Positions 22,942 to 37,625 of a stretch of 64,000 nt of DNA are shown in pieces; position 1 is the first letter of the stretch, and each line of letters begins with the position of its first letter. The notes beneath the pieces were generated by a model. It was not told the origin of the DNA. It did no database searches and saw nothing but the letters and a program-made list of their open reading frames with translations. Made by a program: the position numbers and the translations under genes. The stretch lies in the sequence record OR670491; one strand, written 5' to 3'. The DNA is from Escherichia phage vB_EcoM_JNE01.

Positions 22942-22944
22942 CAA

Positions 22945-23046: not shown

Positions 23047-23047
23047 A

Positions 23048-23076
23048 ATTATGCCAGTACTGGATGCACTTGTCAA
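23048..23076 (-). promoter_or_regulatory. minus-strand promoter (TTGACA-N17-CATAAT with upstream TG)
   Basis: reverse complement reads ttgacaagtgcatccagtactggcataat. Confidence 0.5.
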
Positions 23077-23184
23077 CAACTATTTTTCAAATACTTTTTA
23101 TTAAAATACTTGCAATTAGTTTTTAAACGCGTATAATGTTTTGCATAGGGGGAGCGGTTCCCCTGGTAACTAAGGAATAATAAA

Positions 23185-23421: not shown

Positions 23422-23505
23422 AGTACTTGCAATTAGTTTTTAGTACTGTATAATATTTTACATCGCAAGGGGAAACGGTTTCCCCTGGTAACTAAGGATA
23501 ATCAA

Positions 23506-23805: not shown

Positions 23806-23823
23806 TGAAGTACTGAATCATAA

Positions 23824-23850
23824 GCCCACTATAAGAAGTGGGCTTTTTTT
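23824..23850 (+). terminator. rho-independent terminator
   Basis: gcccact-ataagaa-gtgggc followed by T7. Confidence 0.65.
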
Positions 23851-24035
23851 ATTGTAGTACTGAATACTTTAAAAATAGTTTTGAAATAGTAGTTGACATT
23901 ACCAGGGAAAGGCGTAGAATGTATTACATCAGGACGGGGAACACTAAGTAGACCGCCAGTAAGTCGAACGAAAAACTGGACACGACCTGGAAACTTTGAT
24001 AAACTAACTTACACTTTAATTGAGGAATTAAAAAA

Positions 24036-24515
24036 ATGGCAAATGTAAAATCATTCTTTAAAGCACTGGTATCTTCTGACGTATCTATCGCCGCTGAATT
24101 GCTGGCTGACCTGGATAATGATACCATGAAAGCAGTACGCAATAATTTTAATATGGCGTACAGTGCAGCAAAAGAACTGCAAGCCAAAAAGGTAGCAGAA
24201 CTGGAAGCGGCAAAGGCAGAACGTGAAGCAGAACTGCAAGCAACAATCGAAAGCATCCAGGCGGCGGTAAGTGGATTGGATATCGAGATCGTAACCGATA
24301 TGGCACATAAAGCCCTAGCTGCAAAATACGGTGAAGTAAAAGCGGTTAAAGAAAAGAAATGGATTCAGGACCGCGTTAACGTAGTACTTGACAACGGGGA
24401 AGAATATCTTATTCCTGTACGCGGTAACTGCATTGCCGTAGTACTGGACGCGATTAACTCCAGTGGTATGACACGCGAGGAATGGATCGAAGCTCATCGC
24501 AAAGTTGAAGCATAA
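24036..24515 (+). CDS. hypothetical protein with predicted coiled-coil segment
   Basis: 159-aa ORF; alanine/glutamate/lysine-rich heptad-like stretch AKELQAKKVAELEAAKAEREAELQA. Confidence 0.55.
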   Translation: MANVKSFFKALVSSDVSIAAELLADLDNDTMKAVRNNFNMAYSAAKELQAKKVAELEAAKAEREAELQATIESIQAAVSGLDIEIVTDMAHKALAAKYGEVKAVKEKKWIQDRVNVVLDNGEEYLIPVRGNCIAVVLDAINSSGMTREEWIEAHRKVEA

Positions 24516-24536
24516 CAATAAAAGTACTGAATCACT

Positions 24537-24563
24537 AGCCCACCTTAAACGGTGGGCTTTTTT
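24537..24563 (+). terminator. rho-independent terminator
   Basis: agcccacc-ttaaac-ggtgggct followed by T6. Confidence 0.65.
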
Positions 24564-24790
24564 GTGTTTATCGTTTACCAGGCCACCAGCACCGCCTAGA
24601 AACGATTCTAACGCATTAAACTGATTATCTGATGCATTGCCCTAGCTGGTGGCGTTAAGGCTGTAAGAACGCGATTGAGAGCGTTTAAAGTATTTTGCAA
24701 AAAGTAATAAAAAGTACTTGCACGATTAAGAGATTAGCGTATAATTAATTACATCAAGGCAAGACACCTTAACTAACTGAGGATATAAAG

Positions 24791-24943
24791 ATGAATACTT
24801 ATGACCTGGATTGTTTTACTTTACAAGTAATGTCAGTATGCAGTAAGAAAGATTGGTCATCAAAGGAATTTAAAGCAGTTATCGCGTGTGCAAAACACGG
24901 CAAGACTATCAATGAAACGGCATCAATCATTGATAAACTTTAA
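24791..24943 (+). CDS. small hypothetical protein (50 aa, below ORF-track cutoff)
   Basis: hand-translated ORF downstream of promoter aaaagtacttgcac...gcgtataat with GAGGA RBS. Confidence 0.4.
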   Translation: MNTYDLDCFTLQVMSVCSKKDWSSKEFKAVIACAKHGKTINETASIIDKL

Positions 24944-24951
24944 AAAATAGT

Positions 24952-24980
24952 TTGACAATAGTTTTAAGTACTGGCATAAT
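24952..24980 (+). promoter_or_regulatory. early promoter (TTGACA-N17-CATAAT with upstream TG)
   Basis: ttgacaatagttttaagtactggcataat. Confidence 0.6.
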
Positions 24981-25012
24981 ACATACATCAACTACTGAAT
25001 AGGAATTAAAAA

Positions 25013-25240
25013 ATGGCTATTATCATTACTCGCGTATCTGGTACTACTGGCAACGAACAAGTAGTTGCAGTCATTACCAACAAGGAAGGTGCGGAATTGC
25101 AAAATGCAATGAATACCTGGGCCGTTAATGAGTTCGGTCAGTGGGCAAGTGTAGCATACATTGAAACCTATCAAGTGCCGTCGATTAGTTTAACTGATTT
25201 GGGCGTTGAGCGTATCCTTTGCCTGGATGAATTAAATTAA
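25013..25240 (+). CDS. hypothetical early protein
   Basis: ORF from track; AGGAA RBS. Confidence 0.55.
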   Translation: MAIIITRVSGTTGNEQVVAVITNKEGAELQNAMNTWAVNEFGQWASVAYIETYQVPSISLTDLGVERILCLDELN

Positions 25241-25325
25241 AAAAGTACTTGCAAAGTAAATCGAATAAAGTATAATACATTACATCAAGGGGAGAAATGG
25301 TTCTCCCCACTACAAGGAAACTAAA

Positions 25326-25469
25326 ATGAAAACTTGTCAATGTGGTCATAAATCTATTACGGGTTTTAAGCGGGGCGTTGCTCTTTGCCAGTACCATTAT
25401 AATTTACAAGTATGGGGTAAAGAATGGGCCGACCAGGTGGAAGCAGCAAAGAAAGCAAAAAGTAAGTAA
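25326..25469 (+). CDS. small cysteine-containing hypothetical protein (47 aa)
   Basis: hand-translated ORF after promoter + ggggagaaatggttctcccc hairpin; CQCGH...CQYH pattern suggests possible metal binding. Confidence 0.4.
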   Translation: MKTCQCGHKSITGFKRGVALCQYHYNLQVWGKEWADQVEAAKKAKSK

Positions 25470-25557
25470 AATATTATCACAGTACTATTGACATAGTTTG
25501 ATAGTACTGGCATAATAGATTTTATCAAGACAACATATTAATTTAAGGAATACAAAA

Positions 25558-25881
25558 ATGGCTAAAACTATCATTAACACCGTTTCCCTGGCTGCAATCC
25601 GTGCAATCAATGTTGACGGTAAACGTTGGACTGATACATATGGCAATACTTATCATTCTTGTCATGTAAGCGTTGAACTGGATAACGGTTTGAATGATCT
25701 GGCGGTTGAATCATTTACTTATGGCTATGAAGATGCATATCAACAAACGGCGTTAGATCTATTAAAGGAATCAGTAGACGGGCTTAATACTGATGAAACC
25801 TCCCTTACTCGTTTGTGCAATGATCTTAATATCCCGTTGCATTGTACTGTACAGAATGTTAAACGCAAAAAAGATCTTTAA
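25558..25881 (+). CDS. hypothetical early protein (paralogue of 32407..32730)
   Basis: shares RWTD..GNTYHSC.VS...TFTYGY...VKRKKD with 32407..32730. Confidence 0.6.
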   Translation: MAKTIINTVSLAAIRAINVDGKRWTDTYGNTYHSCHVSVELDNGLNDLAVESFTYGYEDAYQQTALDLLKESVDGLNTDETSLTRLCNDLNIPLHCTVQNVKRKKDL

Positions 25882-25961
25882 TTAGCTTTACTTTATGCAG
25901 ATACTTTGATATAGTGTCTGCATAGGGGAAAGAAATTAAATTAACTTAAGAGGATCGTATA

Positions 25962-26231
25962 ATGAAAAATATCAGTACTTTAATCGATACAGGTACTCAT
26001 GTTCGTCGGTCTATGGTTGCAACCAGTACTACAAAACAAGTACCAAGCGGTTATCTTGTATTTGTGCACGATGGTAAACTCCTGGAACGTTCAATCAATT
26101 TTGATGTTAAAAACAATTGCCGTTTTATTATCTTTAAGCGTGAGCAATATAAAATTGATTTACCAGCAAAGCCCATAAGCGGGGCGTACAACGTGCAATC
26201 ATTGTTTGAACGTCAACCATACACCTATTAA
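25962..26231 (+). CDS. hypothetical early protein
   Basis: ORF from track with AAGAGGA RBS. Confidence 0.5.
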   Translation: MKNISTLIDTGTHVRRSMVATSTTKQVPSGYLVFVHDGKLLERSINFDVKNNCRFIIFKREQYKIDLPAKPISGAYNVQSLFERQPYTY

Positions 26232-26282
26232 TCAAAACATCGTTAGCGGTCGATTTAGGCCGCGTATATTGGGGATTATACC

Positions 26283-26555
26283 ATGAACGTTAATCAAGTA
26301 CTGAATGAGATCGAAAGCATCATTAAACCAATGAAACGCATTGATGCTATGTTAACACCGGAAGAATGCCGCCTTTATGAGCGTTACAGCGTCGAACAAG
26401 TCCAGGCAATGGCTATGGCTACCCCAGCCGTTAAACCGCCTGAGAATGCGTTACAGGACGTTACAGGGGATTATATCATCAATCCAGTACTAGGGAAGAT
26501 GGCTGCAATCACCGAAGATCAACAAGATTACTTAAGTCAGTACTTAAAAGGTTAA
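26283..26555 (+). CDS. hypothetical early protein
   Basis: ORF from track. Confidence 0.45.
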   Translation: MNVNQVLNEIESIIKPMKRIDAMLTPEECRLYERYSVEQVQAMAMATPAVKPPENALQDVTGDYIINPVLGKMAAITEDQQDYLSQYLKG

Positions 26556-26560
26556 TTAAT

Positions 26561-26770
26561 ATGCTTACTGTACAGGATAAGATCGACATCTTAAAGGTTA
26601 ATATGTATGTGATTGATGCAGTACCTGGTAAAGTATTTGCATACGATGACAGTACTGTAAGCGATTTCTACTATAGCCAGGACGTGGGGGATCTTTCTGT
26701 ACAGTCGGTTATTGAAAACGTAGTTAATGCAGCGTATGAGCATTTACTTTCAAATAGTACTTGCAATTAG
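26561..26770 (+). CDS. hypothetical early protein
   Basis: ORF from track, closely following previous gene. Confidence 0.45.
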   Translation: MLTVQDKIDILKVNMYVIDAVPGKVFAYDDSTVSDFYYSQDVGDLSVQSVIENVVNAAYEHLLSNSTCN

Positions 26771-26839
26771 TTTTTAAACGCGTATAATGTTTTACATGAA
26801 GGGGAGAAATGATTCTCCCCACTAATTAAGGAATATGAA

Positions 26840-26986
26840 ATGAAAGCATCAAAAAAGAGTAATACTAAGAAAGCACGTTCAACCTTAGATGGGGTATTCC
26901 CTTTACGTTTCGTTGATGAAGTGGTGTCCTACCCGCCGGGCCTTACTCCTGAGATGGTAGAAAGTTTGCGTAAATCTAAAAAATAG
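26840..26986 (+). CDS. small basic hypothetical protein (48 aa)
   Basis: hand-translated ORF after promoter + ggggagaaatgattctcccc hairpin and AAGGAA RBS. Confidence 0.4.
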   Translation: MKASKKSNTKKARSTLDGVFPLRFVDEVVSYPPGLTPEMVESLRKSKK

Positions 26987-27067
26987 TACTTGCAATTAGT
27001 TTTTAGTACTGTATAATAGTTTACATGAAGGGGAGAAATGATTCTCCCCAATAACAGGAGAATCAAA

Positions 27068-27220
27068 ATGAAACAATACAACGCTCGGTTTGATGTTACT
27101 ATCGGTAACGGCAAAGGTCAATTCTCTTTCAGTACTCGCAAAAGTTATACAGAAAACTTCCTGCGTAATTGTGCACTGACCGCCGCTCAAATTAAACATT
27201 ACTTTCAGGCTAAAAAATGA
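27068..27220 (+). CDS. small hypothetical protein
   Basis: start MKQYNAR after promoter/hairpin and AGGAG RBS; track ORF begins upstream at 27038. Confidence 0.5.
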   Translation: MKQYNARFDVTIGNGKGQFSFSTRKSYTENFLRNCALTAAQIKHYFQAKK

Positions 27221-27306
27221 AAACATTAGCTTACTATAGTTCGGCCCTGGTCGGTGCATTGATCGCGGCGTTGTTAGTAACCTATCTATTCTTTATGGTG
27301 ATTTAA
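27217..27306 (+). CDS. small hydrophobic peptide (29 aa), possible membrane peptide
   Basis: hand-translated ORF MKTLAYYSSALVGALIAALLVTYLFFMVI; ATGA-coupled on both sides. Confidence 0.3.
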   Translation: MKTLAYYSSALVGALIAALLVTYLFFMVI

Positions 27307-27450
27307 ATGAATCCAACAGGTTTAAACTATAAAAGTTGTTCGGCGTTTACGAAAGCAAATAAAGCGAATGCACGTAAAGCGAAAGTACAAGAATACATCA
27401 AGCAAGGCATGACGCGAAAGGCGGCGATTCTAAAAGCTAAAAATAAATGA
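27307..27450 (+). CDS. small lysine-rich basic protein (47 aa)
   Basis: hand-translated ORF coupled to upstream peptide. Confidence 0.3.
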   Translation: MNPTGLNYKSCSAFTKANKANARKAKVQEYIKQGMTRKAAILKAKNK

Positions 27451-27560
27451 AAAAAGTGGTTGACTCCGGTCAGCCATTTTGCTATTATATATTCATTGAG
27501 AGATAGCTCACTAGCCCACAGGGTGCATAAGTGTATCTATTATATGAGTATTGAGTACTG
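27451..27560 (+). promoter_or_regulatory. repeat module: hairpin with embedded TTGACT -35, TATTAT -10, CCCACAGGGTGC box
   Basis: one of four full copies (also about 31468-31575, 34741-34850, 37487-37625). Confidence 0.5.
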
Positions 27561-27671
27561 AAAACTATTTTAAAAGTATTTGTAGAAAGTACTTGCAAAC
27601 TATCTCAATAAGCGTATAATGTTTTACATCGAAAGGGGAAACGGTTTCCCCTGATAATAAGGAAACAAATC

Positions 27672-28013
27672 ATGACTATCTCAATTGCTCAATCTAACTT
27701 TGAAAACGAAATCATCGCCCAGGCACTGCGTTTAAATGATGGTCGGGCCGAAATTAATTACGGTTTCAATTCAGGCGGTTGTGAAAAATATCAGTACTTT
27801 GTAACGGCTGATGGCGGTGTCCTGGGTATCAATACAGTTATTGTAAACATCCAAAAAATTAATTTCAATGATCCAGACGATAGCCAGTTTTACATCACTG
27901 GCGTAGACGTGAACTATGAGGATGACTCACTAACTGATGATCACACTGGTGAGAAGTTAGAGAGTGCATACGGTGAAGATGATTATCAGTCAGTACCGGA
28001 AGATTTTGAATAA
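27672..28013 (+). CDS. hypothetical acidic protein
   Basis: ORF from track after promoter + aggggaaacggtttcccct hairpin; acidic C-terminal third. Confidence 0.55.
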   Translation: MTISIAQSNFENEIIAQALRLNDGRAEINYGFNSGGCEKYQYFVTADGGVLGINTVIVNIQKINFNDPDDSQFYITGVDVNYEDDSLTDDHTGEKLESAYGEDDYQSVPEDFE

Positions 28014-28027
28014 TATTAAAAAAATAG

Positions 28028-28086
28028 TTTGACAATAGATTATAGTACTGTATAATAGTTTACATCAAGGGGAGAAAAACTTCTCC
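28028..28086 (+). promoter_or_regulatory. early promoter (TTGACA-N16-TATAAT) + 5' stem-loop (ggggagaaaaacttctcccc)
   Basis: read directly. Confidence 0.6.
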
Positions 28087-28110
28087 CCACTAACAGAGAG
28101 AGAAAACAAA

Positions 28111-28323
28111 ATGGCTAATATCTGCACTGTACTGAAAAATGCAAAACAAGTTTTATTTTCTGATCACGATCATTTAAACAAGGATATTACTGGCGTTCGG
28201 AATATCAAAGATGTAAAAAGTGTTATGGGTATCTATTGCAATATGAAACGTGTTGGAACGTTCGGCGACAAAGTACTATACCAGGCAGGGGATTACAATT
28301 TTACACTGACTATCATTAACTAA
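28111..28323 (+). CDS. hypothetical early protein
   Basis: ORF from track. Confidence 0.55.
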   Translation: MANICTVLKNAKQVLFSDHDHLNKDITGVRNIKDVKSVMGIYCNMKRVGTFGDKVLYQAGDYNFTLTIIN

Positions 28324-28415
28324 AAATATATTACCAGTACTATTAAATCTATTGACAACGTTTGATAGTACTGACATAATAACTTTTATCAACTACACTA
28401 CTAAGGAATTAAAAA

Positions 28416-28595
28416 ATGGCTATCATCGCAAAAACTGAAATCGTTGGTCTGGATTCTATCATCATGACGTTTGAAGATCAAAAAGGTATGTATGTAGTTT
28501 CATATGGTGATTATGTTCGGGAGTATGAAACGGTAGACGAAGCCTTTGAAAGTTATATTCGCCAGGTGAATAAAGCATACGACGACTACCGCTAA
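28416..28595 (+). CDS. small hypothetical protein (59 aa)
   Basis: hand-translated ORF after ttgacaacgtttgatagtactgacataat promoter and AAGGAA RBS. Confidence 0.45.
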   Translation: MAIIAKTEIVGLDSIIMTFEDQKGMYVVSYGDYVREYETVDEAFESYIRQVNKAYDDYR

Positions 28596-28685
28596 AATAT
28601 ATTACCAGTGCTATTGACAAAGTTTGATAGTACTGTATAATAAGTTTTATAAACAGTAGTTAACTTAACCTAAGAGAGAAATAAA

Positions 28686-28829
28686 ATGATCGCACTGGAT
28701 TCATTCATCGACGCAGTACTGGCAAAAACTGGCGAGGATCTGACCGCAGAACAATACGCGATGATCGAGCAATGTCAGCAAAACGGTAAATCGGTGAAAG
28801 ATACTGTTAAGATTATCCGCAAGATGTAA
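28686..28829 (+). CDS. small hypothetical protein (47 aa)
   Basis: hand-translated ORF after ttgacaaagtttgatagtactgtataat promoter. Confidence 0.45.
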   Translation: MIALDSFIDAVLAKTGEDLTAEQYAMIEQCQQNGKSVKDTVKIIRKM

Positions 28830-28836
28830 GATTATA

Positions 28837-28866
28837 GCCCACTGGTTAACGCTGGTGGGCTTTAAT
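28837..28866 (+). terminator. hairpin terminator containing a Chi octamer
   Basis: gcccac-tggttaacgctg-gtgggc then TTTAATCCTTT; GCTGGTGG lies in the loop/3' arm. Confidence 0.45.
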
Positions 28867-28928
28867 CCTTTACCCTATACAATGCCAGTACTCAACCGTT
28901 TATCTCGTTAGAATGCGTTACAGGACGT

Positions 28929-29132
28929 TTGACAATGATTAGCATGAAATCAGTACAAAAACAAATAGAAACATTATCAAAAATTAAACGTAAACAGTAC
29001 TCGTTAGAATATACAATCAATGGTAACTATCATCTAATGAAAGAGAATAATTTTATCGTCATTGATGAATCATTGCAAGTTATTAGTATAGTACTGAAAG
29101 CATTAATCAATGACAGAAAAAAATTAAAATAA
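28929..29132 (+). CDS. hypothetical protein (uncertain start)
   Basis: track ORF with TTG start and no clear RBS. Confidence 0.3.
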   Translation: MTMISMKSVQKQIETLSKIKRKQYSLEYTINGNYHLMKENNFIVIDESLQVISIVLKALINDRKKLK

Positions 29133-29136
29133 TCTA

Positions 29137-29165
29137 TTGACAATATCCTCCAGTACTGGCATAAT
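29137..29165 (+). promoter_or_regulatory. promoter (TTGACA-N17-CATAAT) heading a long leader with CCCATAGGGTGC box
   Basis: ttgacaatatcctccagtactggcataat; about 300-nt leader before gene 29462. Confidence 0.55.
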
Positions 29166-29221
29166 ACTTACATCAAGACGAGAACGTCGCTAACCCATAG
29201 GGTGCACAAATGTAACTATAT

Positions 29222-29300
29222 AATATCGATCAATAAATGATCAAAAAAGTACTGGATCAATTTAGCATAAGGCGTATAATTCTGATCAATTCTTGATCAA
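29222..29300. promoter_or_regulatory. cluster of five GATC sites (tgatcaa-type repeats) around a TATAAT element upstream of the TraR/DksA-like gene
   Basis: GATC at about 29228, 29239, 29255, 29284, 29295, as cgatcaat / tgatcaaa / ggatcaat / tgatcaat / tgatcaaa. Confidence 0.5.
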
Positions 29301-29461
29301 AGGCAATATACGCAGTTGAATTTATATAGACAGTACAAAGGCGTTACTATCCGTGGTAATGCTGGTGGATATGTAGTATCATATGGTTTGAATAAGATAA
29401 ACACTAGTAGTATTATTGTAGCATTACAGTACTATAGTATTTTTATAATGAGGTTAAAATA

Positions 29462-29719
29462 ATGGCAGTAGGATACGCGAAAGACGGGGCCGAACAAGAC
29501 GAGATTCACGCAGTGATTCAGGCCGCCGTTAACCACGCTAGAAAGCAAATTAACGCACAAAGAGAATCACTGGTACATTGCCTCGACTGCGGCGATAAAA
29601 TCCCTGAGAATCGACGCCAGGCCGTTATAGGGTGCATGTATTGTATTACTTGCCAGGAGGATCATGATAGTACTTTTAAAAGAGATCCGCGTAATTGTTG
29701 GCATAGATCTATGAGATAA
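29462..29719 (+). CDS. TraR/DksA-family C4 zinc-finger protein (putative RNA polymerase-binding regulator)
   Basis: CLDCGDKIPENRRQAVIGCMYCITCQ matches the TraR/DksA zinc-finger pattern CxxC...IPxxR...CxxCQ; 85 aa; GAGG RBS. Confidence 0.65.
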   Translation: MAVGYAKDGAEQDEIHAVIQAAVNHARKQINAQRESLVHCLDCGDKIPENRRQAVIGCMYCITCQEDHDSTFKRDPRNCWHRSMR

Positions 29720-29725
29720 AAAGTA

Positions 29726-29753
29726 TTGACAGTACTGAAAGATAGTGTATAAT
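29726..29753 (+). promoter_or_regulatory. early promoter (TTGACA-N16-TATAAT)
   Basis: ttgacagtactgaaagatagtgtataat. Confidence 0.6.
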
Positions 29754-29782
29754 GTTTTATATCTTAACTGAGGATAGTAATC

Positions 29783-30139
29783 ATGGGAATACAACATATC
29801 ACGCGTACTACTGACAATGGCGAGATCACTGGTTATCAGGTACAGGGCAAAGTAGCACAATTGCAGTACTGGTTTGTTAAACGTGGAATCATTGCACCGG
29901 ATCTTGATTATGACCGTGTAGCGTTTATTGATTCTCTTTATGTTGATCCTGATAGTCGGGGCAATGGTGAAGGTAACGAATTAATGAATGCCTTTATTGA
30001 TGCCGCCGATGATTCAGATTGTATCATCTTAGAATGCGATACGGGAGAAGATAACGCCTTTAATCTTAAAGAATGGTACGAAGGTTTCGGATTCGAGGTA
30101 CTGATCGATAGTGAATATCCTATCATGATTTTATCATAG
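29783..30139 (+). CDS. hypothetical early protein
   Basis: ORF from track with GAGGA RBS. Confidence 0.55.
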   Translation: MGIQHITRTTDNGEITGYQVQGKVAQLQYWFVKRGIIAPDLDYDRVAFIDSLYVDPDSRGNGEGNELMNAFIDAADDSDCIILECDTGEDNAFNLKEWYEGFGFEVLIDSEYPIMILS

Positions 30140-30217
30140 TACTTGCATTTAGTTTTCAGTACTGTTATAGTACTTGCATCAAGGGGAAACATCTTCCCCT
30201 ACTAAGAGGAAATAAAA

Positions 30218-30406
30218 ATGGAAAACTTATCAAGTATTTTAGTACAAGATGATTTCGGTAATCCTGGAAGTGCTATCATTGTTCGGGGCAATAAAGCAAC
30301 GTTTGTTATTGCTGGTGGACCCGTACAGCGTAGCATTAAAAATAATGCTGTTACCATTAATAATGTACGCTATCGCTTAGATAAAGAATTAATTCATAAA
30401 CTGTAA
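30218..30406 (+). CDS. small hypothetical protein
   Basis: ORF after promoter + aggggaaacatcttcccct hairpin. Confidence 0.5.
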   Translation: MENLSSILVQDDFGNPGSAIIVRGNKATFVIAGGPVQRSIKNNAVTINNVRYRLDKELIHKL

Positions 30407-30433
30407 TATTAATTTAATAGAGGATAACAATAA

Positions 30434-30757
30434 ATGTACATTCATACTACTATCACAAAGGAAGTCCGTTGCCAGTTCGAAAGTATTCCGGGCGTATGTT
30501 TCATCACTGGTACGTTTTCCCCTGGTGATCGTGATAATCCAGTACTGTTACAATTACGCCATCCATCATGGGATAAAGCATTTGATCTACCGTTGAATGA
30601 ATTCGCAACTACTGCTGAAAAGTACATTAAAAATATTCGCGAGAATGATCGACTATTCATTAATGCTTTTAGTGATGCCGCGTTAAGTGAGATCCATGCT
30701 GTATTGGTTGCAATCATGGAATCAATGGAGAAAACTATATTCAAACAAGGTGAATAA
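30434..30757 (+). CDS. hypothetical early protein
   Basis: ORF from track with GAGGA RBS. Confidence 0.55.
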   Translation: MYIHTTITKEVRCQFESIPGVCFITGTFSPGDRDNPVLLQLRHPSWDKAFDLPLNEFATTAEKYIKNIRENDRLFINAFSDAALSEIHAVLVAIMESMEKTIFKQGE

Positions 30758-30763
30758 AAACTA

Positions 30764-30822
30764 TTGACAATGCAATCCAGTACTGTATAATAGTTTACAT
30801 GAAGGAGAGAAATGATTCTCCC
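30764..30822 (+). promoter_or_regulatory. early promoter (TTGACA-N16-TATAAT) + 5' stem-loop (gagagaaatgattctc)
   Basis: read directly. Confidence 0.6.
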
Positions 30823-30840
30823 CACTAAGAGGAAAGAAAA

Positions 30841-31053
30841 ATGCAAGGTCAACTAATCGTTCGTAAATGGTCTGATACTAACGAAAAACCGTGGGATGTA
30901 CAATACATCGCCCCAAATGGTGAATCCAGATATCAACCAGGTGTAACGCATAGTACTGAGCAATTCGCCGCCGCTCATCGCGAACGTCTGTTACAATCAA
31001 TGCAGCAAGGTTCCGGTGAAAAATTCATTCAGGATCATTGGCTGAAAGATTAA
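30841..31053 (+). CDS. hypothetical early protein
   Basis: ORF from track. Confidence 0.55.
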   Translation: MQGQLIVRKWSDTNEKPWDVQYIAPNGESRYQPGVTHSTEQFAAAHRERLLQSMQQGSGEKFIQDHWLKD

Positions 31054-31139
31054 AAAGTACTTGCACAGTACTGAATAAAGTGTATAATGTTTTATATCGG
31101 AAGGGGAATAGTTCCCCTCCGAACAAAGAGGAAAGTATA

Positions 31140-31313
31140 ATGGTCCAGGTAGAATTAACAGTACTGAAAGATCTGTTTTATCGGATTGGTACTACTGGCG
31201 AATATCCGAAGGGTGATAATGCAAAACTTTACGTATCACTCGACTTATGGCAACGCGAACAATTAGCAACGGCCTGGCGTAAAGGCAAAGCAGATAGCGA
31301 GGTGAAAGCATGA
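31140..31313 (+). CDS. small hypothetical protein
   Basis: track ORF 31038..31313 begins with TTG inside promoter; ATG MVQVELT after AGAGGAAAG RBS at 31140. Confidence 0.5.
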   Translation: MVQVELTVLKDLFYRIGTTGEYPKGDNAKLYVSLDLWQREQLATAWRKGKADSEVKA

Positions 31314-31459
31314 AAGAATTCTTATTTGAAGTAGTGTTTCAAGGTGTCGGTAATAACCAACTGATTCGATCAAGTGGTTATAATGTTAACCAGGCATGGA
31401 ATAACATTAAACAAATGTACCCGAACGCTATCACATATCGCAACCCGAAAGAAGTTTAA
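31310..31459 (+). CDS. small hypothetical protein (49 aa)
   Basis: hand-translated ORF, ATGA-coupled to upstream gene. Confidence 0.35.
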   Translation: MKEFLFEVVFQGVGNNQLIRSSGYNVNQAWNNIKQMYPNAITYRNPKEV

Positions 31460-31467
31460 AAATAATT

Positions 31468-31575
31468 GAAAAAGGGATTGACTCCGGTCAGTCCCTTTGT
31501 TATTATATACGCATAGAAACAAATTAGCCCACCGGGTGCATAAATGTATCTATTGTTTGCTGGTGGCTAGTACTG
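31468..31575 (+). promoter_or_regulatory. repeat module: hairpin gggattgactccggtcagtccc with embedded -35, TATTAT -10, CCCACCGGGTGC box, Chi octamer
   Basis: copy of the 27451-27560 module; GCTGGTGG at about 31559. Confidence 0.5.
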
Positions 31576-31631
31576 AAAACTATTTTTAAAAAGTACTTGC
31601 ATTGTACTTAGAATCAAGTATAATGTTTTAC

Positions 31632-31760
31632 ATCAGGACGGGGAACGAAATAAGTAACCCCGTTAAGTAGTCCAGGAGTAAGACATACGAAAAACTCCCC
31701 TGATAAAATAGTTTGACAATAGAAAGTAAACGAGTATAATACTTACATCAACCACTGATA
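31632..31760 (+). promoter_or_regulatory. conserved about 90-nt leader between tandem promoters (copy of 21228-21345)
   Basis: caggacggggaacgaaataagtaaccccgttaagtagtccaggagtaagacatacgaaaaactcccctgataaaatagtttgacaa. Confidence 0.5.
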
Positions 31761-31773
31761 AGGAAACATAAAA

Positions 31774-32049
31774 ATGCGGATTCTACTGACAGCTAACGAA
31801 ATCGAACAAGTACTGACTACTAATCTGGAACAATGGAAACGTGAAGCAGATATCCAGGCGGTTCAATGCCTTAACGATAAGTTAACGCCAGATGACTTAA
31901 GCACGATTGTTGATCCACAATTTTATGAAGATATTCACGACACGTCTTTAAGCGTCGAGGATGTACTTGATAAGCACTACATTGATACTGATTTACATGT
32001 TTACGGTCGTAAAAACTTTATCACTATTCACGACATTTACAATACTTAA
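31774..32049 (+). CDS. hypothetical early protein
   Basis: ORF from track. Confidence 0.55.
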   Translation: MRILLTANEIEQVLTTNLEQWKREADIQAVQCLNDKLTPDDLSTIVDPQFYEDIHDTSLSVEDVLDKHYIDTDLHVYGRKNFITIHDIYNT

Positions 32050-32052
32050 GTA

Positions 32053-32110
32053 TTGACAAAGTATCTTAGTACTGTATAATAGTTTACATCAAGGGGGGGA
32101 ATGGTTCCCC
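32053..32110 (+). promoter_or_regulatory. early promoter (TTGACA-N16-TATAAT) + 5' stem-loop; module duplicated at 32322-32380
   Basis: ttgacaaagtatcttagtactgtataatagtttacatcaaggggg...ggttcccctcc; duplicate differs only in G-run length. Confidence 0.6.
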
Positions 32111-32135
32111 TCCTAACTAAAAGAGAGAAATAAAA

Positions 32136-32318
32136 ATGGCTAAGTGCACTATCTGTAATAAAGAAATAGTATTAGTTCCAAGTGCCCGTGAACGTGCCGC
32201 TCGGTTCGGTGGCAAAGCGTCAGACTATACAAAAATGTTTACTACCCATACAGCTTGCCAGGTAGCAAAACGTTCACAAGAAAGCGTAGAATTAATGCGT
32301 AAACTTTCCAAAAAATAA
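32136..32318 (+). CDS. small cysteine-containing hypothetical protein
   Basis: ORF from track; CTICNK...HTACQ pattern. Confidence 0.5.
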   Translation: MAKCTICNKEIVLVPSARERAARFGGKASDYTKMFTTHTACQVAKRSQESVELMRKLSKK

Positions 32319-32321
32319 GTA

Positions 32322-32380
32322 TTGACAAAGTATCTTAGTACTGTATAATAGTTTACATCAAGGGGGGGGGAATGGTTCCC
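32322..32380 (+). promoter_or_regulatory. early promoter + 5' stem-loop (duplicate of 32053-32110)
   Basis: read directly. Confidence 0.6.
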
Positions 32381-32406
32381 CTCCTAACAAAGAGAGAGAA
32401 ATAAAA

Positions 32407-32730
32407 ATGGCTATGATCCTTACCCAGAAAGTAGAACTGAAAATTGTAACCTCCTTTGACATTAAAGTTAATCGGTGGACTGATAGCCACGGCAATACTT
32501 ACCACTCCTGCTACGTGTCCGCATTGATTGGTGATCGCTGGGAAGACCTGGGACACGAAACCTTTACATACGGTTACGGCACACAAGGCGAGTACACGGG
32601 TTTAGAAATCATTAAGGAAACTGTAATAGGTTTCAACCCGAAAGAGAAAGTACTACACAGAATTGAGAAAGAGATCAACAAAGAAATTACAGTTCGCTAC
32701 TACGATGTAAAACGTAAGAAAGACATGTAA
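32407..32730 (+). CDS. hypothetical early protein (paralogue of 25558..25881)
   Basis: conserved block shared with 25558..25881. Confidence 0.6.
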   Translation: MAMILTQKVELKIVTSFDIKVNRWTDSHGNTYHSCYVSALIGDRWEDLGHETFTYGYGTQGEYTGLEIIKETVIGFNPKEKVLHRIEKEINKEITVRYYDVKRKKDM

Positions 32731-32829
32731 TAGAATCCATTTAAAGTACTATTTGACATTGCCCAGATAGTACTTTATAATAGACTCTAACTTGTAGTAC
32801 TAATTAACTTAACTAATAGGATGTACACC

Positions 32830-33225
32830 ATGATTACTAAATTCTTCGCTACCCGTGAACAAGCTCGCATCGTTGCCCGTGAGGAAGGTGAAACATTTAA
32901 AGACATGGGTAAAGATTCTCCTACTGGTAAACGCTGGGCGGTACAGTTCAAAGAGATCTCTGATATTGTGAATTCACCTGAGCCTGTACTTACAGCAGCA
33001 GAACTAAAGCAAGCTCAAGAACTGGCTGAAGTACTGAACGCTCAAGATGACTTCTTGAAAGGTTCTGATATTGAAGTTACAGTTAACGCAAATGCATGGA
33101 CTCACGCGGATCACCTGGCAAACCTTAAGCGTCCAAGTGAACTGATTCGTAACCAGAAAGAGATCCGTCATGACCGTAAAGGAAACCGTGTTACCGTATA
33201 CAGTAAACGCCGCCAGGTTATCTAA
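32830..33225 (+). CDS. hypothetical early protein (paralogue of 20361..20627)
   Basis: conserved FATREQAR / GKRWA / RKGNRVTVY blocks; start may instead be 32821. Confidence 0.5.
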   Translation: MITKFFATREQARIVAREEGETFKDMGKDSPTGKRWAVQFKEISDIVNSPEPVLTAAELKQAQELAEVLNAQDDFLKGSDIEVTVNANAWTHADHLANLKRPSELIRNQKEIRHDRKGNRVTVYSKRRQVI

Positions 33226-33289
33226 TACCTTGCAGTACTAACCAACACGGCGGGAAGACAGTTCCCGCCTTTTTTATAGGACAAACAAA

Positions 33290-33544
33290 ATGATTAAGGT
33301 TCAACTATATAAAGATAACATCTTACGGGTACACTATAAAGCACCTCAGAGAATCATCACAAAGGCCGTACAGCTTGCTAATGAGTTTATTAATGGTAAC
33401 CTATTACCTAGGAAGTTAAGCAACGGGAAACTGCGTGTAATCGACGTGGACACTAACAACAGGATAGTAATCGAGAACACAGGAAAGATAAACCTTTATG
33501 AGCATCAACAATACAATAAGAAAATAAAACTAATATCACGTTGA
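33290..33544 (+). CDS. hypothetical early protein
   Basis: ORF from track. Confidence 0.5.
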   Translation: MIKVQLYKDNILRVHYKAPQRIITKAVQLANEFINGNLLPRKLSNGKLRVIDVDTNNRIVIENTGKINLYEHQQYNKKIKLISR

Positions 33545-33597
33545 CAGTACTCAATTGTTTTAGTACTATGTACACATACCAACACGGGAGAAACAAA

Positions 33598-33816
33598 ATG
33601 AAATTATCTAAAATCGAAAAGAAAACTATTGATGAAGCAGTTAAGCACGGTTATACCTTTCGTAATGATTCACATTTTACCAATTTTCAACAAGGGTATC
33701 GTACTATTAAAAAACTAATTGACAAAGGTTTATTAGTTGAAGTCAATAACGGTAACGGTATCGAGTATCAACCAACACAGGACGCATTTTATTTTAAGAA
33801 ATATAATATTATCTAA
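33598..33816 (+). CDS. hypothetical early protein
   Basis: start MKLSKIEKK after promoter ttgacagtactcaattgttttagtactat; track ORF 33541..33816 begins inside the promoter. Confidence 0.5.
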   Translation: MKLSKIEKKTIDEAVKHGYTFRNDSHFTNFQQGYRTIKKLIDKGLLVEVNNGNGIEYQPTQDAFYFKKYNII

Positions 33817-33874
33817 TTGACAGTACTCAAATGTTTTAGTACTATATGTACATACCAACACGGGGGGAAACAAA

Positions 33875-34117
33875 ATGATTACTTTAGAAAAACGTATCAA
33901 AGAAACTACATCGCTGGTGGAACTGTTAACAGTACTCAAATGTAAAACAGCACCATTCAGCACGCCGGACTTTATTAATATGGTTGATGTTAATGGTCGC
34001 TATCGTATCACGGTCGAACAAGGAGCGGCGAAAGTATTCAGTACTAAAAACACGAAGGAAGTGATCCACGCCGTTAATGTTAAAAAAGTAGTTGCCATTG
34101 ATAGTAAAGTACTGTAA
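33875..34117 (+). CDS. hypothetical early protein
   Basis: preceded by a near-identical copy of the 33541-33597 promoter/leader. Confidence 0.55.
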   Translation: MITLEKRIKETTSLVELLTVLKCKTAPFSTPDFINMVDVNGRYRITVEQGAAKVFSTKNTKEVIHAVNVKKVVAIDSKVL

Positions 34118-34148
34118 TATAGTTTCATTAACTCAAGGAGATCATGCA

Positions 34149-34733
34149 ATGCGTAATTATACAAAATTCATCCGTACACTGTCAGAAATGGAAACCAACA
34201 AAGAGATCCTTTCAGCTTGTCGGTTAGCTGACCTGGAGATCATCGGTGCTGGTTCTTCCCGTATAGTTTTCGCTTTAAATGATCGGTTAGTGATTAAGGT
34301 CGCGAATTGTGATGCGGGTGTAGAACAAAATGAAACTGAATGTAAGGTATGGAATTTTTTAGACTATGACCGCCCTCAGTTGAAACAGTACTTTGCAAAG
34401 GTGCATATGCATTTATGCGATCCTGATAATATGTTTATCGTTATGGATCGGTTGAGTACTGCAAGCAAAGGCAGTGTGAAGCACGTAAACGCGTGCAATG
34501 AATTAAAGTACAATATTAAACGTAATGCAATCGAACGCCAGCACCGCTTTGCTGATGCACTACAACACGTTGATGATACATTATCAACACTAACGATAAG
34601 AGATATCAGAAAACAGAATATCGGCCAGGATCGTAATGGACTTATTAAAGTACTTGATTACGGTTTAACCAGCAATATCTGGAATCAGTACTATAAAAAG
34701 CGTGATGTGGCAGCAAGTAAGGTAACACGATAA
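34149..34733 (+). CDS. putative minimal protein kinase-like protein
   Basis: ordered kinase-like motifs: glycine loop IGAGSSRIVF, lysine in VIKVA, catalytic-loop-like IRDIRKQNIG, DFG-like VLDYG; start MRNYTKF after AAGGAG RBS. Confidence 0.5.
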   Translation: MRNYTKFIRTLSEMETNKEILSACRLADLEIIGAGSSRIVFALNDRLVIKVANCDAGVEQNETECKVWNFLDYDRPQLKQYFAKVHMHLCDPDNMFIVMDRLSTASKGSVKHVNACNELKYNIKRNAIERQHRFADALQHVDDTLSTLTIRDIRKQNIGQDRNGLIKVLDYGLTSNIWNQYYKKRDVAASKVTR

Positions 34734-34740
34734 AAAAGAT

Positions 34741-34850
34741 TAAAAAAAGGGATTGACTCCGGTCAGTCCCTTTGCTATTATATATCCATTGAGAGATAAC
34801 TCACTGACCCATAGGGTGCGGAAGTGTATCTATTATATAAGTATTCAGTA
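34741..34850 (+). promoter_or_regulatory. repeat module: hairpin with embedded -35, TATTAT -10, CCCATAGGGTGC box (copy of 27451-27560)
   Basis: gggattgactccggtcagtccctttgctattatat...gacccatagggtgcggaagtgtatc. Confidence 0.5.
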
Positions 34851-34955
34851 CTGAAAACTATTTTTAAAAAAGTACTTGCATTGTACTTAGAATCAAGTAT
34901 AATGTTTTATATCGAGAGGGGGAAATGGTTCTCCCTGGCAATAAGGAATAAAATC

Positions 34956-35177
34956 ATGACTACAATGACTTGCATTTACGCTTCCAATCGTCTGAATGAT
35001 GCGGCCTTTAATGTTGATTCAGAATATCAATGTTATCGGGATGAAAATAAAAAAGTTTTTGTAGTTGATAATAATGGTTTCCATATTGAATTACAATCCG
35101 GCTTCACTGGTGTTGATGGTAAATCAGTATGGGGCGTACAGGATGATAAAGGCACATATCATTTTAAACGTAATTAA
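34956..35177 (+). CDS. hypothetical early protein
   Basis: start MTTMTCIY after promoter + gggggaaatggttctccc hairpin; track ORF begins upstream at 34824. Confidence 0.5.
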   Translation: MTTMTCIYASNRLNDAAFNVDSEYQCYRDENKKVFVVDNNGFHIELQSGFTGVDGKSVWGVQDDKGTYHFKRN

Positions 35178-35180
35178 GTA

Positions 35181-35240
35181 TTGACAAAGTATATCAGTAC
35201 TGTATAATAGTTTACATCAAGGGGAGAATAGTTCTCCCCG
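35181..35240 (+). promoter_or_regulatory. early promoter + 5' stem-loop; module duplicated at 35672-35740
   Basis: ttgacaaagtatatcagtactgtataatagtttacatcaaggggagaatagttctcccc present twice. Confidence 0.6.
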
Positions 35241-35260
35241 ATACTAAAAGGAATAAAATC

Positions 35261-35665
35261 ATGACTACTACTAATCTTGCTCGGAATATCGCCAACGATA
35301 AAAATCATGCTGCAATGGTTGTTGGTTACATTGAAGCTATGCAATTCAGTACTGTACACAATGAGAACGGCGATTACCTGGAAGATTATGAATTATCAGA
35401 GCAAGCCCATCAAGCGGCAGTGATTGCATGTTCTCGCTTCATTGAGAAACACGGTAATGATCTGGAAGTAGTTCGCGGTATGTTTATTGATTACGGTTAT
35501 GAGCAAGCTGGTCATGATCTGTTCCTTACCCGCGAAGGTCACGGAACTGGTTTTTGGGATCGTGGTTTAGGTCACTATGGCGATGTATTCACGAAGTACT
35601 GCGAAGAAATCAACGTTTGCGATCCCTATGTAGGCGATGATAATCTAATCTATATGGGCGAATAA
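35261..35665 (+). CDS. hypothetical early protein
   Basis: ORF from track. Confidence 0.55.
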   Translation: MTTTNLARNIANDKNHAAMVVGYIEAMQFSTVHNENGDYLEDYELSEQAHQAAVIACSRFIEKHGNDLEVVRGMFIDYGYEQAGHDLFLTREGHGTGFWDRGLGHYGDVFTKYCEEINVCDPYVGDDNLIYMGE

Positions 35666-35671
35666 AAGTAT

Positions 35672-35740
35672 TTGACAAAGTATATCAGTACTGTATAATA
35701 GTTTACATCAAGGGGAGAATAGTTCTCCCCGATACTAAAA
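35672..35740 (+). promoter_or_regulatory. early promoter + 5' stem-loop (duplicate of 35181-35240)
   Basis: read directly. Confidence 0.6.
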
Positions 35741-35752
35741 GGAAACAAAATT

Positions 35753-36025
35753 ATGTCCAGCTACTCCGCTACTATGATCATTAAAGATATGAACGGTAAT
35801 CCTACTTCTGCTGGTGGATCATTTGGAAACATTAATTTAGATGGTCGGTTATCCATGCAATCAGCAATCGATGCAGCGAAAGAAGTTTTTAAGAATGAAT
35901 GTACTGTTAGTAAGCTGGATTATATGGGATTTGCTATCGAAAAAACTAATCGTTTTGTGGACTACAAAAAACCACTGATGATTGATACTAACCTGAAAGC
36001 AAACGAAGTGGAGTACTTATTATGA
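35753..36025 (+). CDS. hypothetical early protein
   Basis: ORF from track. Confidence 0.55.
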   Translation: MSSYSATMIIKDMNGNPTSAGGSFGNINLDGRLSMQSAIDAAKEVFKNECTVSKLDYMGFAIEKTNRFVDYKKPLMIDTNLKANEVEYLL

Positions 36026-36213
36026 CAGTTGAAGAAGTTAAAAAAGTACTGGCAGTACTACGCTATCATAATCATTGTAAGGTGAAGAATGATCCTGATT
36101 ATCTTGATTCATCCCTGGAAGAGGATACACTACAAGCAATAAGCCATATGCAAACATTAGCAAAGCGTATGACCGAAAAGAATAGACCGGACTATATCGG
36201 AAATAAAATTTAA
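36022..36213 (+). CDS. small hypothetical protein
   Basis: ATGA-coupled to upstream gene. Confidence 0.5.
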   Translation: MTVEEVKKVLAVLRYHNHCKVKNDPDYLDSSLEEDTLQAISHMQTLAKRMTEKNRPDYIGNKI

Positions 36214-36299
36214 AAAGTACTTGCATTGTAGTTAGATTAACGTATAATGTTTTACATAGAGCGGGGGAATAGTTCTCCCGCCAGTCCAGGAGATACACC

Positions 36300-36563
36300 A
36301 TGAACACTATCGAAATCACTATCAATGCACACGTATACGACAACGTAATCATGCAAACTACTATGACCGCTAATGATACCAGTACTTTGCGGAATACTGT
36401 TATTAGTGCTGTATGTGCCGCTATCGGTGATGTCGCCCTGGAAAATGCAAAACACGTAAACGATGGTTTCACTATGTGCAAACGTGATAACGCAAAACAT
36501 ATCATCGTGGAAGGTTACGGCGGTGTAGAATTTAATGTTTATATGAAAAAAGTACTTGCATAA
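36300..36563 (+). CDS. hypothetical early protein
   Basis: ORF after promoter + gcgggggaatagttctcccgcc hairpin. Confidence 0.55.
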   Translation: MNTIEITINAHVYDNVIMQTTMTANDTSTLRNTVISAVCAAIGDVALENAKHVNDGFTMCKRDNAKHIIVEGYGGVEFNVYMKKVLA

Positions 36564-36630
36564 TAACTAAAACAAAGTATAATGTTTTGCATAGGGGGAG
36601 ATATCCTCCCCCACTAAAAGGAGTAATAAA

Positions 36631-36855
36631 ATGGCTAACTTTGATGAACTGATGCGGGAAGTAGCTAACCTGGCAGAAGAGAAGAAATCATTCGATTCTA
36701 TCTATAACACCGCTCACCGTGATTCAGTACTGGCATGTAACCAGGATCAAAAAGATGAACTAATCGCCACCTATCATGAAGCATGGAAGTACTACCGACA
36801 ATGGGAGAAAGAAGAAAGTGAGTCTACCATTGACGGCCTCAATAATCTAATCTAA
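36631..36855 (+). CDS. hypothetical early protein
   Basis: ORF after promoter + gggggagatatcctccccc hairpin. Confidence 0.55.
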   Translation: MANFDELMREVANLAEEKKSFDSIYNTAHRDSVLACNQDQKDELIATYHEAWKYYRQWEKEESESTIDGLNNLI

Positions 36856-36931
36856 AAGTTTTATTTCAGTACTATTGACATAGCTTGATAGTACTGATGT
36901 AATAACTTTACTAACTACAAGGGGAAACATA

Positions 36932-37189
36932 ATGGATCAGTTCACACAATATCGGGTAAATCATCAAGCTATGGCCTACGTAGAAGACCATAAAACGTTA
37001 CCAGTACTGCAACCAGTTAAAGGCCATATCTATCGTGCAATGTCGTGGTGTACGGCCCAGGATGGCTATAAAACCGTAGCCGTTGGTATGTATTGCGGTA
37101 ATGGTGAATGGTTTGATCCAAATAATCCGGTAGCCATTGACAGTACTGAAAAAATGAAATGGGCCGACTACATCGAAGATATTTCATAA
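36932..37189 (+). CDS. hypothetical early protein
   Basis: ORF from track after ttgacatagcttgatagtactg promoter. Confidence 0.5.
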   Translation: MDQFTQYRVNHQAMAYVEDHKTLPVLQPVKGHIYRAMSWCTAQDGYKTVAVGMYCGNGEWFDPNNPVAIDSTEKMKWADYIEDIS

Positions 37190-37206
37190 AAACTATTTGA
37201 CAGTAC

Positions 37207-37265
37207 TAACCAGTAATGTATAATGTTTTACATAGAGCGGGGAATAGTTCTCCCGCCAATAGTTT
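37207..37265 (+). promoter_or_regulatory. early promoter (TTGACA-N16-TATAAT) + 5' stem-loop (gcggggaatagttctcccgc)
   Basis: read directly. Confidence 0.6.
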
Positions 37266-37278
37266 GGAGTAAAACATT

Positions 37279-37486: not shown

Positions 37487-37625
37487 AGAATAAAAAAAGG
37501 GATTGACTCCGGTCAGTCCCTTTGCTATTATATACGCATAGACAAAAACTAGCCCACAGGGTGCATAGGTGTATCCAAAATATATAGTTAATAACGGTGA
37601 GTAACTATCTGCTGGTGGAACTAAA
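37487..37625 (+). promoter_or_regulatory. repeat module: hairpin with embedded -35, TATTAT -10, CCCACAGGGTGC box, Chi octamer
   Basis: copy of 27451-27560 module; GCTGGTGG at about 37611. Confidence 0.5.

Follow-up and report, generated by a model that had tools for sequence, protein, structure and literature searches.

Recent work has revealed that kinases serve phages as broad weapons of counter-defence (T7K, Nature 2026; PMC13645617). In particular, T7K, the gp0.7 protein of phage T7, is a hyperpromiscuous anti-defence kinase in which a DPV/DP motif replaces DFG, a replacement that has been linked to its hyperpromiscuity (PMC13645617). In the jumbo coliphage Sharanji a second protein kinase of unknown function (gp063, WNN14351.1) was noted and kept apart from the T7-kinase homologue WNN14432.1 (PMC11895373). 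Here we analyse the orthologue of Sharanji gp063 in Escherichia phage vB_EcoM_JNE01, a gene for a protein of 194 amino acids (aa) that lies in a 64,000-nucleotide stretch of sequence record OR670491 (the window; coordinates in Table 1). Judging from its sequence and predicted fold, the gene very probably codes for a kinase that is pared down but catalytically intact and is produced as infection begins. The fuller reading that we prefer, and to which we assign a probability of about 0.6, is that of a constitutively active minimal kinase, made early, that would phosphorylate host or phage proteins.

The product is identical to protein WOL23091.1 of vB_EcoM_JNE01, and the window is from an Asteriusvirus, the region being 90–99% identical to those of Asteriusvirus jumbo coliphages (~350 kb) such as 121Q, PBECO4, phAPEC6 and Sharanji. 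The orthologue is called hypothetical in most records, but it is labelled “protein kinase domain-containing protein” in ph0011 and, in UniProt, in PBECO4, “serine/threonine-protein kinase PRP4” in fEgEco12, and Ser/Thr kinase in phages Turkey3 and Turkey5; a homologue in Salmonella phage Munch, 39% identical, is a “putative protein kinase”. The kinase reading is already public as a prediction and is not new. What is added here is the size and signature of the family together with the absence of a curated model for it, its separation from T7K, a confident fold model, and the terminal-repeat and promoter context. On its sequence, the gene is an uncharacterised addition to the phage-encoded minimal kinases, with a substrate that is only predicted.

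An earlier reading of the nucleotide sequence, made without database searches (the sequence-only reading), had proposed a minimal protein-kinase-like early gene from four short motifs in kinase order. All four are present: the glycine-rich loop IGAGSSRIVF, K50 in VIKVA, the catalytic loop IRDIRKQNIG, and VLDYG, whose DYG is the equivalent of DFG. The sequence after the catalytic loop, GxIKvLDYGLT, we take to be of the Ser/Thr-kinase type and not of the aminoglycoside phosphotransferase (APH) or choline kinase (ChoK) type. When the single sequence is compared with Pfam, the best match is Pkinase (PF00069; E 0.0033, profile positions 6–152), and all 17 matches at E ≤ 10 found in the PDB by single-sequence HMMER are protein kinases. 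The HMMER alignment with MKK4 is in register through the catalytic loop and DFG (aligned segment IRDIRKQNIGQDRNGLIKVLDYGLT). With a profile of 14 close homologues, 257 PDB sequences are found at E ≤ 1, protein kinases almost without exception, with MKK4 and MKK7 at the top (E 1.5e-4 to 5e-4); residues 21–172 of MKK7 align to residues 29–183 of the phage protein, from the glycine-rich loop to past DFG. Among phage protein families, PHROGs gives phrog_4301 (E 1.1e-41, residues 2–188), which has no functional annotation, and a search of NCBIfam with the 194-aa protein gave no match. The best PADLOC matches are the PD-T4-6 models (17.4 bits, E 7e-4), over residues 92–176 including the catalytic loop and DYG; this match is very weak and partial, and PD-T4-6 proteins are products of bacterial defence genes, 292–547 aa long, rather than of phage early genes.

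The conservation of these motifs extends across a large family. Searched exhaustively with a family profile, 1.84 billion cluster representatives (clusters at 50% identity) yield 2071 clusters at E ≤ 1e-3, of which 244 reach E ≤ 1e-10; most are of 180–270 aa. Across 113 aligned homologues, whose identity to the query goes down to ~20%, L29, S36, R38, K50, Q60, E64, G159, D170 and G172 are invariant, and the catalytic D152 is kept in 112, N61 of the αC helix in 110 and G35 of the glycine-rich loop in 108. At position 171, 90 of them have Y and 20 have F, and D[YF]G is found in 110. The family signature can be written as [GS]xGSSRxV[FY] ... VxK[IV]A ... GxxQNxxE ... D-x4-[NSTH]-x-G ... [IVL]D[YF]G[LF] ... 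YY. None of the 113 aligned members reaches the threshold of any Pfam family. Their commonest sub-threshold matches belong to the kinase clan (Pkinase 17, ABC1 9, PK_Tyr_Ser-Thr 7, YrbL 2), and no Pkinase match among them is better than E 0.003. Membership of the YrbL family (PF10707) was considered and rejected, with an hhalign probability of 0.1% and sub-threshold PF10707 matches in only 2 of the 113 relatives; one multidomain relative (P0053) scores 29.4 bits against PF10707, under the cut-off of 31.5.

Homologues are widespread among the RaK2-like jumbo phages (Munch/7t3, RaK2/K64-1, XbC2, EJP2, CBB and fHe-Yen9-04), often near the left end of the record, and one lies on a 287-kb freshwater contig that is phage-like in appearance; a search of GTDB species genomes with patterns from the close clade found no relative. 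Three relatives carry the family domain in longer proteins. In the first (P0155), a tape-measure protein of 3248 aa (PhageMin_Tail), two family domains stand in tandem, each with the full signature, which suggests that some phages may inject the enzyme itself. The second (P0215, 330 aa) has a GNAT domain N-terminal to the family domain, and in the third (P0139, 2130 aa) the family domain is joined by LigT, a CCA-adding enzyme and additional kinase-like repeats. Each of the fusions is a single case and serves as a lead only.

A structure prediction by AlphaFold2 (AF2) with the alignment of 14 sequences was unusable (predicted local distance difference test score, pLDDT, 59.9) and was rerun on the 113 sequences. 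The second model has a pLDDT of 94.6 and a predicted template-modelling score (pTM) of 0.90, and its elements come in kinase order (Table 1). The sequence-only reading had made its proposal depend on a kinase fold, and AF2 together with Foldseek gives a kinase-like one; in the model the protein has the two lobes, the β3 Lys and αC Glu, and the catalytic and DFG-type Asp residues of the protein-kinase-like (PKL) fold. The term kinase-like is borne out by the profile matches, by the catalytic residues conserved across the family and by the confident fold prediction, and the term minimal is equally apt, as the chain ends about 22 residues after DYG with the final helix as the only one there. In the PDB, the top Foldseek match is the Legionella kinase Lpg2603, with APH(2''), OSR1 and PknB after it. 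Among viral models (BFVD) it finds many phage proteins of 140–260 aa, including UniProt-named protein kinases of phages SK1, fPS-53, Q19 and RSB1 (E ~1e-5). The small atypical kinases of bacterial effectors and archaea (Lpg2603, Salmonella SteC, RIO2 and TkArkI) have no family-level sequence similarity to the 194-aa protein, which lacks an activation domain of the inositol hexakisphosphate (IP6) type as well as the RIO winged helix and flexible loop, and its glycine-loop signature differs from theirs.

Comparison with T7K, which the sequence-only reading had offered as a precedent, is informative on both sides. Both proteins are phage-encoded, and the host polymerase transcribes T7K as infection begins and probably the 194-aa gene too. 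In both, a helical extension at the N-terminus ends in “..AG[LF]xxLGxG”, the C-lobe is short, the kinase core ends ~20 residues past the DFG-equivalent Asp and the catalytic loop is of the D-x-H/R-x-x-N type, and neither has HRD or a Lys two residues after the catalytic Asp (D+2). In contrast, the 194-aa protein has DYG where T7K has ITDPV and Sharanji gp144 has ITDP, the GSSR and QNxxE signatures are found in its family and not in T7K, and it lacks the shut-off/DNA-binding C-terminal domain. For profile comparison we used a T7K-family alignment of 77 unique T7-like sequences (50–100% identical to T7K) and three jumbo-phage sequences. Against this alignment hhalign pairs 138 columns of the family profile with every motif in register (E 1.1e-3, probability 20%), whereas the probability is 0.2% against T7K alone and 3.7% against Sharanji gp144. 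A T7K hidden Markov model (HMM) aligns over the full length of one relative (P0025, 42% identical to the query; 21 bits, E 2.8e-6 among 305 sequences) and gives 11 bits (E 3.4e-3) with another (P0001) that is 96% identical to the query. T7K has no solved structure for comparison. The T7 parallel stands for architecture and lifestyle but not for family membership, which we reject on the hhalign probabilities of 0.2% and 3.7% and on DYG in place of DPV/DP. The Foldseek matches among viral models (E ~1e-5) add to the likeness. By these alignments the two are kin at the superfamily level, an affinity comparable to that for canonical kinases. T7K-type homologues are themselves present in jumbo phages, namely Sharanji gp144 and those of phages G17 and Munch. 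Sharanji gp144 (L005:4183–4857, minus strand) is a T7 gp0.7-type minimal kinase with the catalytic loop PDIHSSN and ITDP for DFG, and by collinearity with Sharanji a gp144-type homologue sits ~32 kb past the low-coordinate end of the window. Asteriusvirus phages, as judged by sequence, carry two distinct truncated kinases.

About 50 small genes on the same strand, the kinase gene among them, make up a block that is collinear with the left end of the phage vB_Ec-M-J record (Table 1). That record is annotated with a direct terminal repeat of 21,525 bp, within which the kinase orthologue, EcMJ_042, is found. Perfect TTGACA-N16-18-TATAAT sites number 15 in the window, where 0.23 would be expected, and 14 of them lie at 18125–37224, all on the plus strand. 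This density is unusual; the 14 have spacers of 16 or 17 nucleotides, and in many of them the spacer ends in AGTACTG directly before TATAAT. The number of gene copies varies with record length: eight records of 366–383 kb have two copies each, and records of 347–361 kb have one, as do Salmonella phage records of ~322–326 kb. This pattern is expected if the gene sits in a long terminal repeat that is collapsed in some assemblies. The exception is the 386-kb CMSTMSU record with one broken copy, in which the match to the orthologue is split into two parts at 78.7% identity (MH494197.1, 116446–117023) with no coding sequence (CDS) annotated there; this copy may be frameshifted or decaying. No second copy of the kinase gene was found by blastn within the window. 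Beyond the block, window positions 38851–64000 are not collinear by blastn with vB_Ec-M-J 21526–37271 and share one 205-bp match only; the region adjoining the repeat seems to be highly variable among close relatives.

Early expression, as the sequence-only reading had it, is likely because the gene lies in a terminal-repeat-like block with 14 perfect sigma-70 promoters, and there is a precedent by analogy. In the related jumbo phage PA5oct transcription of most terminal-repeat genes is high at 5 min, phage production is sensitive to rifampicin, and the genes of the terminal repeat are early and dependent on the host RNA polymerase (PMC7318152). The block in vB_EcoM_JNE01 also holds genes for a DksA/TraR-type zinc-finger protein, a small GNAT acetyltransferase and a ParE-like toxin-domain protein, which their domains make candidates for host-takeover functions. 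Depletion of Ser, Thr and Tyr in early proteins is a T7K-type signature; by crude calls of open reading frames (ORFs), the content of these three residues is 17.7% in the terminal-repeat block versus 19.4% and 24.3% in its flanks.

From these observations a mechanism can be proposed. On entry of the DNA, the host sigma-70 RNA polymerase would transcribe the kinase gene from the terminal-repeat block, and the kinase would be co-expressed with the DksA/TraR-like, GNAT and ParE-like proteins. The product would consist of two N-terminal helices, a five-stranded N-lobe, a short two-helix C-lobe, the catalytic loop, DYG and a last helix. ATP would be held by the GSSR loop and the K50–E64 pair, D152 would act as the base, and N157 and D170 would hold metals. 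Because the activation segment is absent, the enzyme is expected to be constitutively active, with no switch by loop phosphorylation. It would use ATP to phosphorylate host (or phage) proteins and so serve takeover or counter-defence, by analogy with truncated T7 gp0.7; we infer both a protein substrate and a role in host takeover.

The likeness to Hanks-type kinases (PF00069) lies in the glycine-rich loop, β3 Lys, αC Glu, catalytic Asp and Asn, and the DFG-type Asp followed by G-L-T/S. Several observations nevertheless weigh against the reading of an early protein kinase. A check against kinase profiles, which the sequence-only reading had called for, has Pkinase as the best Pfam match but at 17.3 bits, under the gathering threshold of 31.7. 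Neither the His and Arg of HRD nor the Lys at D+2 is present; the corresponding sequence is I150-R151-D152-I-R154, and positions 150, 151 and 154 are variable in the family. Hanks subdomains VIII–XI (the activation segment with APE, the αF Asp and GHI) are also absent, and with them the parts that hold the peptide. The metal-binding Asn, at position 157, is kept in 29 of 37 close relatives, and the wider family has T, N, S, H or Q there. Foldseek TM-scores against solved kinases are low (0.40–0.47), as fits a query with only part of the C-lobe. Finally, membership of the vB_EcoM_JNE01 gene in a terminal repeat is suggested by homology to vB_Ec-M-J, and repeat lengths differ between reports, that of phage UE-S1 being given as 8.3 kb only (PMC12805682). 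A canonical Hanks-type kinase is rejected on the sub-threshold Pfam score and the missing HRD His/Arg, activation segment and GHI subdomain.

The absence of the peptide-binding parts is also where an alternative finds its footing, namely that the protein is an active kinase-fold enzyme with a non-protein substrate, either RNA or a small molecule (an antibiotic-like anti-phage compound, a sugar, a lipid or a nucleotide), in the manner of aminoglycoside phosphotransferases or the tRNA kinase ArkI. We regard this as unlikely, although it has points in its favour. APH(2'') is at Foldseek ranks 2 and 3, and the structural scores with APH(2''), ArkI and SAICAR synthetase are high; the activation segment, the peptide-binding lobe and the Lys at D+2 are all missing; the GNAT fusions (P0215 and a BFVD NAT_SF protein) have the domain order of AAC(6')-APH(2''); and, besides the fusion with LigT and a CCA-adding enzyme in P0139, a PolyA_pol-family gene lies 2.8 kb from another relative (P0189). 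However, the similarity detected by HMMER is to protein kinases, and APH and choline kinase are absent among the sub-threshold Pfam matches listed for the 113 members. The protein has no sequence-level match to the APH(2'')/choline-kinase type and lacks both its HxDxxxxN His (at D-2) and its C-terminal helical substrate subdomain. A Rosetta-stone link between the kinase gene and the GNAT gene 4 kb upstream is likewise rejected, as the GNAT of P0215 is not specifically related to that of the window (E 0.36). Moreover, protein kinase activity is proven for T7K, which is truncated in the same way and has the same kind of catalytic loop (D-x-H-x-x-N).

It is a good deal less probable that the kinase fold is kept without phosphotransfer, as a pseudokinase, a nucleotide-binding scaffold, or an enzyme of AMPylation (as SelO) or glutamylation (as SidJ). 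The conservation of S36, R38, Q60 and N61, which have no counterpart in canonical kinases, and the failure of the catalytic-loop Asn to be conserved family-wide would fit such a role. Pseudokinases usually lose at least one of the catalytic residues, whereas here K50, E64 and D170 are invariant and D152 is kept in 112 of 113 homologues at ~20–25% identity; this full retention of the Lys/Glu/Asp/Asp set favours an active enzyme. A ligase like SAICAR synthetase or of the ATP-grasp kind is very improbable. SAICAR synthetase and kinases have a common nucleotide-binding core, and a truncated kinase is expected to match SAICAR synthetase; PurC was returned by no sequence search, and all the motifs align to kinase motifs. 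Chance matches in an unrelated small protein, for which one could cite the shortness of the motifs and the weak single-sequence E-values (0.003–0.004), can be dismissed as already refuted, because the four motifs stand in register with MKK4 and MKK7 over ~150 residues, are matched by the 14-sequence profile, contain residues that are invariant family-wide and fall on a confident kinase-like AF2 model.

The coordinates of the gene, its motifs and predicted structural elements, and the neighbouring features are collected in Table 1. A TTG start at 34092, which would give a 213-aa ORF, was rejected; it overlaps the preceding gene and lacks a Shine-Dalgarno sequence, and the homologues start at M1. 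The strand opposite the kinase gene has no rival ORF, the longest there being 45–54 aa. The nearest good sigma-70-type site upstream (TTGACA-17-TACTAT) probably drives both the kinase gene and the 80-aa ORF before it. These two would form one transcript, since no terminator-like site occurs on the plus strand between 33269 and the hairpin at 34746. The product of the 80-aa ORF has no Pfam match, and its orthologue is annotated as a CDS in ph0011, Sharanji and vB_Ec-M-J. The hairpin after the kinase gene, AAAGGGATTGACTCCGGTCAGTCCCTTT, is 28 nucleotides (nt) long and occurs in identical form three times in the window (31471–31498, 34746–34773 and 37496–37523), ~3 kb apart, where none would be expected. 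All three copies are terminator-like and carry the promoter-like TTGACT-17-TATTAT; the repeated hairpin looks like a reused module of terminator plus promoter. Near-identical promoter/leader segments are also found at 33541–33569 and 33817–33845; both start with TTGACAGTACTCAAATG and yield spurious TTG-initiated ORFs whose N-termini are almost alike (MTVLNCFSTMYTYQHG and MTVLKCFSTICTYQHG).

Table 1. The minimal kinase gene of vB_EcoM_JNE01, its motifs and predicted structural elements, and features around it (positions are those of the window).
Feature	Position	Strand	Residues	Basis or remark
Block of ~50 small same-strand genes, including the kinase gene	17757–38850	+		Collinear with vB_Ec-M-J 1–21396 (blastn)
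DksA/TraR-type zinc-finger protein	29462–29719	+		Pfam E 4e-9; same block as kinase gene
GNAT acetyltransferase, 118 aa	29783–30139	+		Pfam E 4e-9; same block as kinase gene
ParE-like toxin-domain protein	33290–33544	+		Pfam E 6e-11; same block as kinase gene
Promoter-like site TTGACA-17-TACTAT	33817–33845	+		10/12 match; nearest good sigma-70-type site upstream of kinase gene
80-aa ORF	33875–34117	+		Probably co-transcribed with kinase gene
Weaker promoter-like site TTGCCA-17-TAATAT	34092–34120	+		9/12, consensus match only; directly 5′ of the ribosome-binding site of the kinase gene
Shine-Dalgarno AAGGAG	34135–34140	+		8 nt 5′ of the kinase-gene ATG; read from sequence
Minimal protein-kinase-like CDS, 194 aa	34149–34733	+		ATG 34149, TAA 34731–34733; stop included
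Glycine-rich nucleotide-binding loop IGAGSSRIVF	34242–34271	+	32–41	Model strands 30–35 and 38–42 (β1–β2)
β3 lysine K50 in VIKVA	34296–34298	+	50	Model strand 47–52; invariant, 113/113
αC motif Q60-N61-x-x-E64	34326–34340	+	60–64	Model helix 55–73; E64 presumed salt-bridge partner of K50
Catalytic loop IRDIRKQNIG, with D152, N157 and G159	34596–34625	+	150–159	Pairs with HRDIKPSN of MKK4 (HMMER)
DYG (DFG equivalent; VLDYG is 168–172)	34656–34664	+	170–172	D170 and G172 invariant
Terminator-like hairpin AAAGGGATTGACTCCGGTCAGTCCCTTT	34746–34773	+		12-bp stem, T-rich tail; 3′ of kinase gene
Promoter-like TTGACT-17-TATTAT	34753–34781	+		Overlaps the terminator-like hairpin at 34746–34773
N-terminal helices			4–12, 17–26	AF2 model
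β1 to β3, K50 within β3			30–35, 38–42, 47–52	AF2 model
αC			55–73	AF2 model
β5			96–100	AF2 model
C-lobe helices			109–120, 130–145	AF2 model
Short strands flanking catalytic loop and DYG			158–160, 166–168	AF2 model
Final helix			175–182	AF2 model

In a wider and more tentative view, which we hold to be possible though doubtful, the protein would represent a very large unmodelled family (at least 2071 clusters) of ~200-aa “GSSR-QNxxE-D[YF]G” minimal kinases that tailed phages use at the start of infection, by way of terminal-repeat genes or the tape-measure protein. Such a family would form a second lineage parallel to T7K, disarming defences or redirecting host machinery alongside a T7K-like kinase. 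If this is true, the DFG-type motif might mean a selective or regulated kinase rather than a hyperpromiscuous one. As judged by sequence, the 121Q/RaK2-group jumbo phages have two unrelated minimal kinases, only one of them T7K-like. The other family is common in phage and metagenome data, lacks a curated model, and differs from T7K at the very motif proposed for promiscuity. For annotation the practical yield is the motif signature together with an alignment that can seed a family model. The substrates of this second family would tell whether large lytic phages generally rely on phosphorylating host proteins early, and would provide a natural comparison of DFG and DPV kinases.

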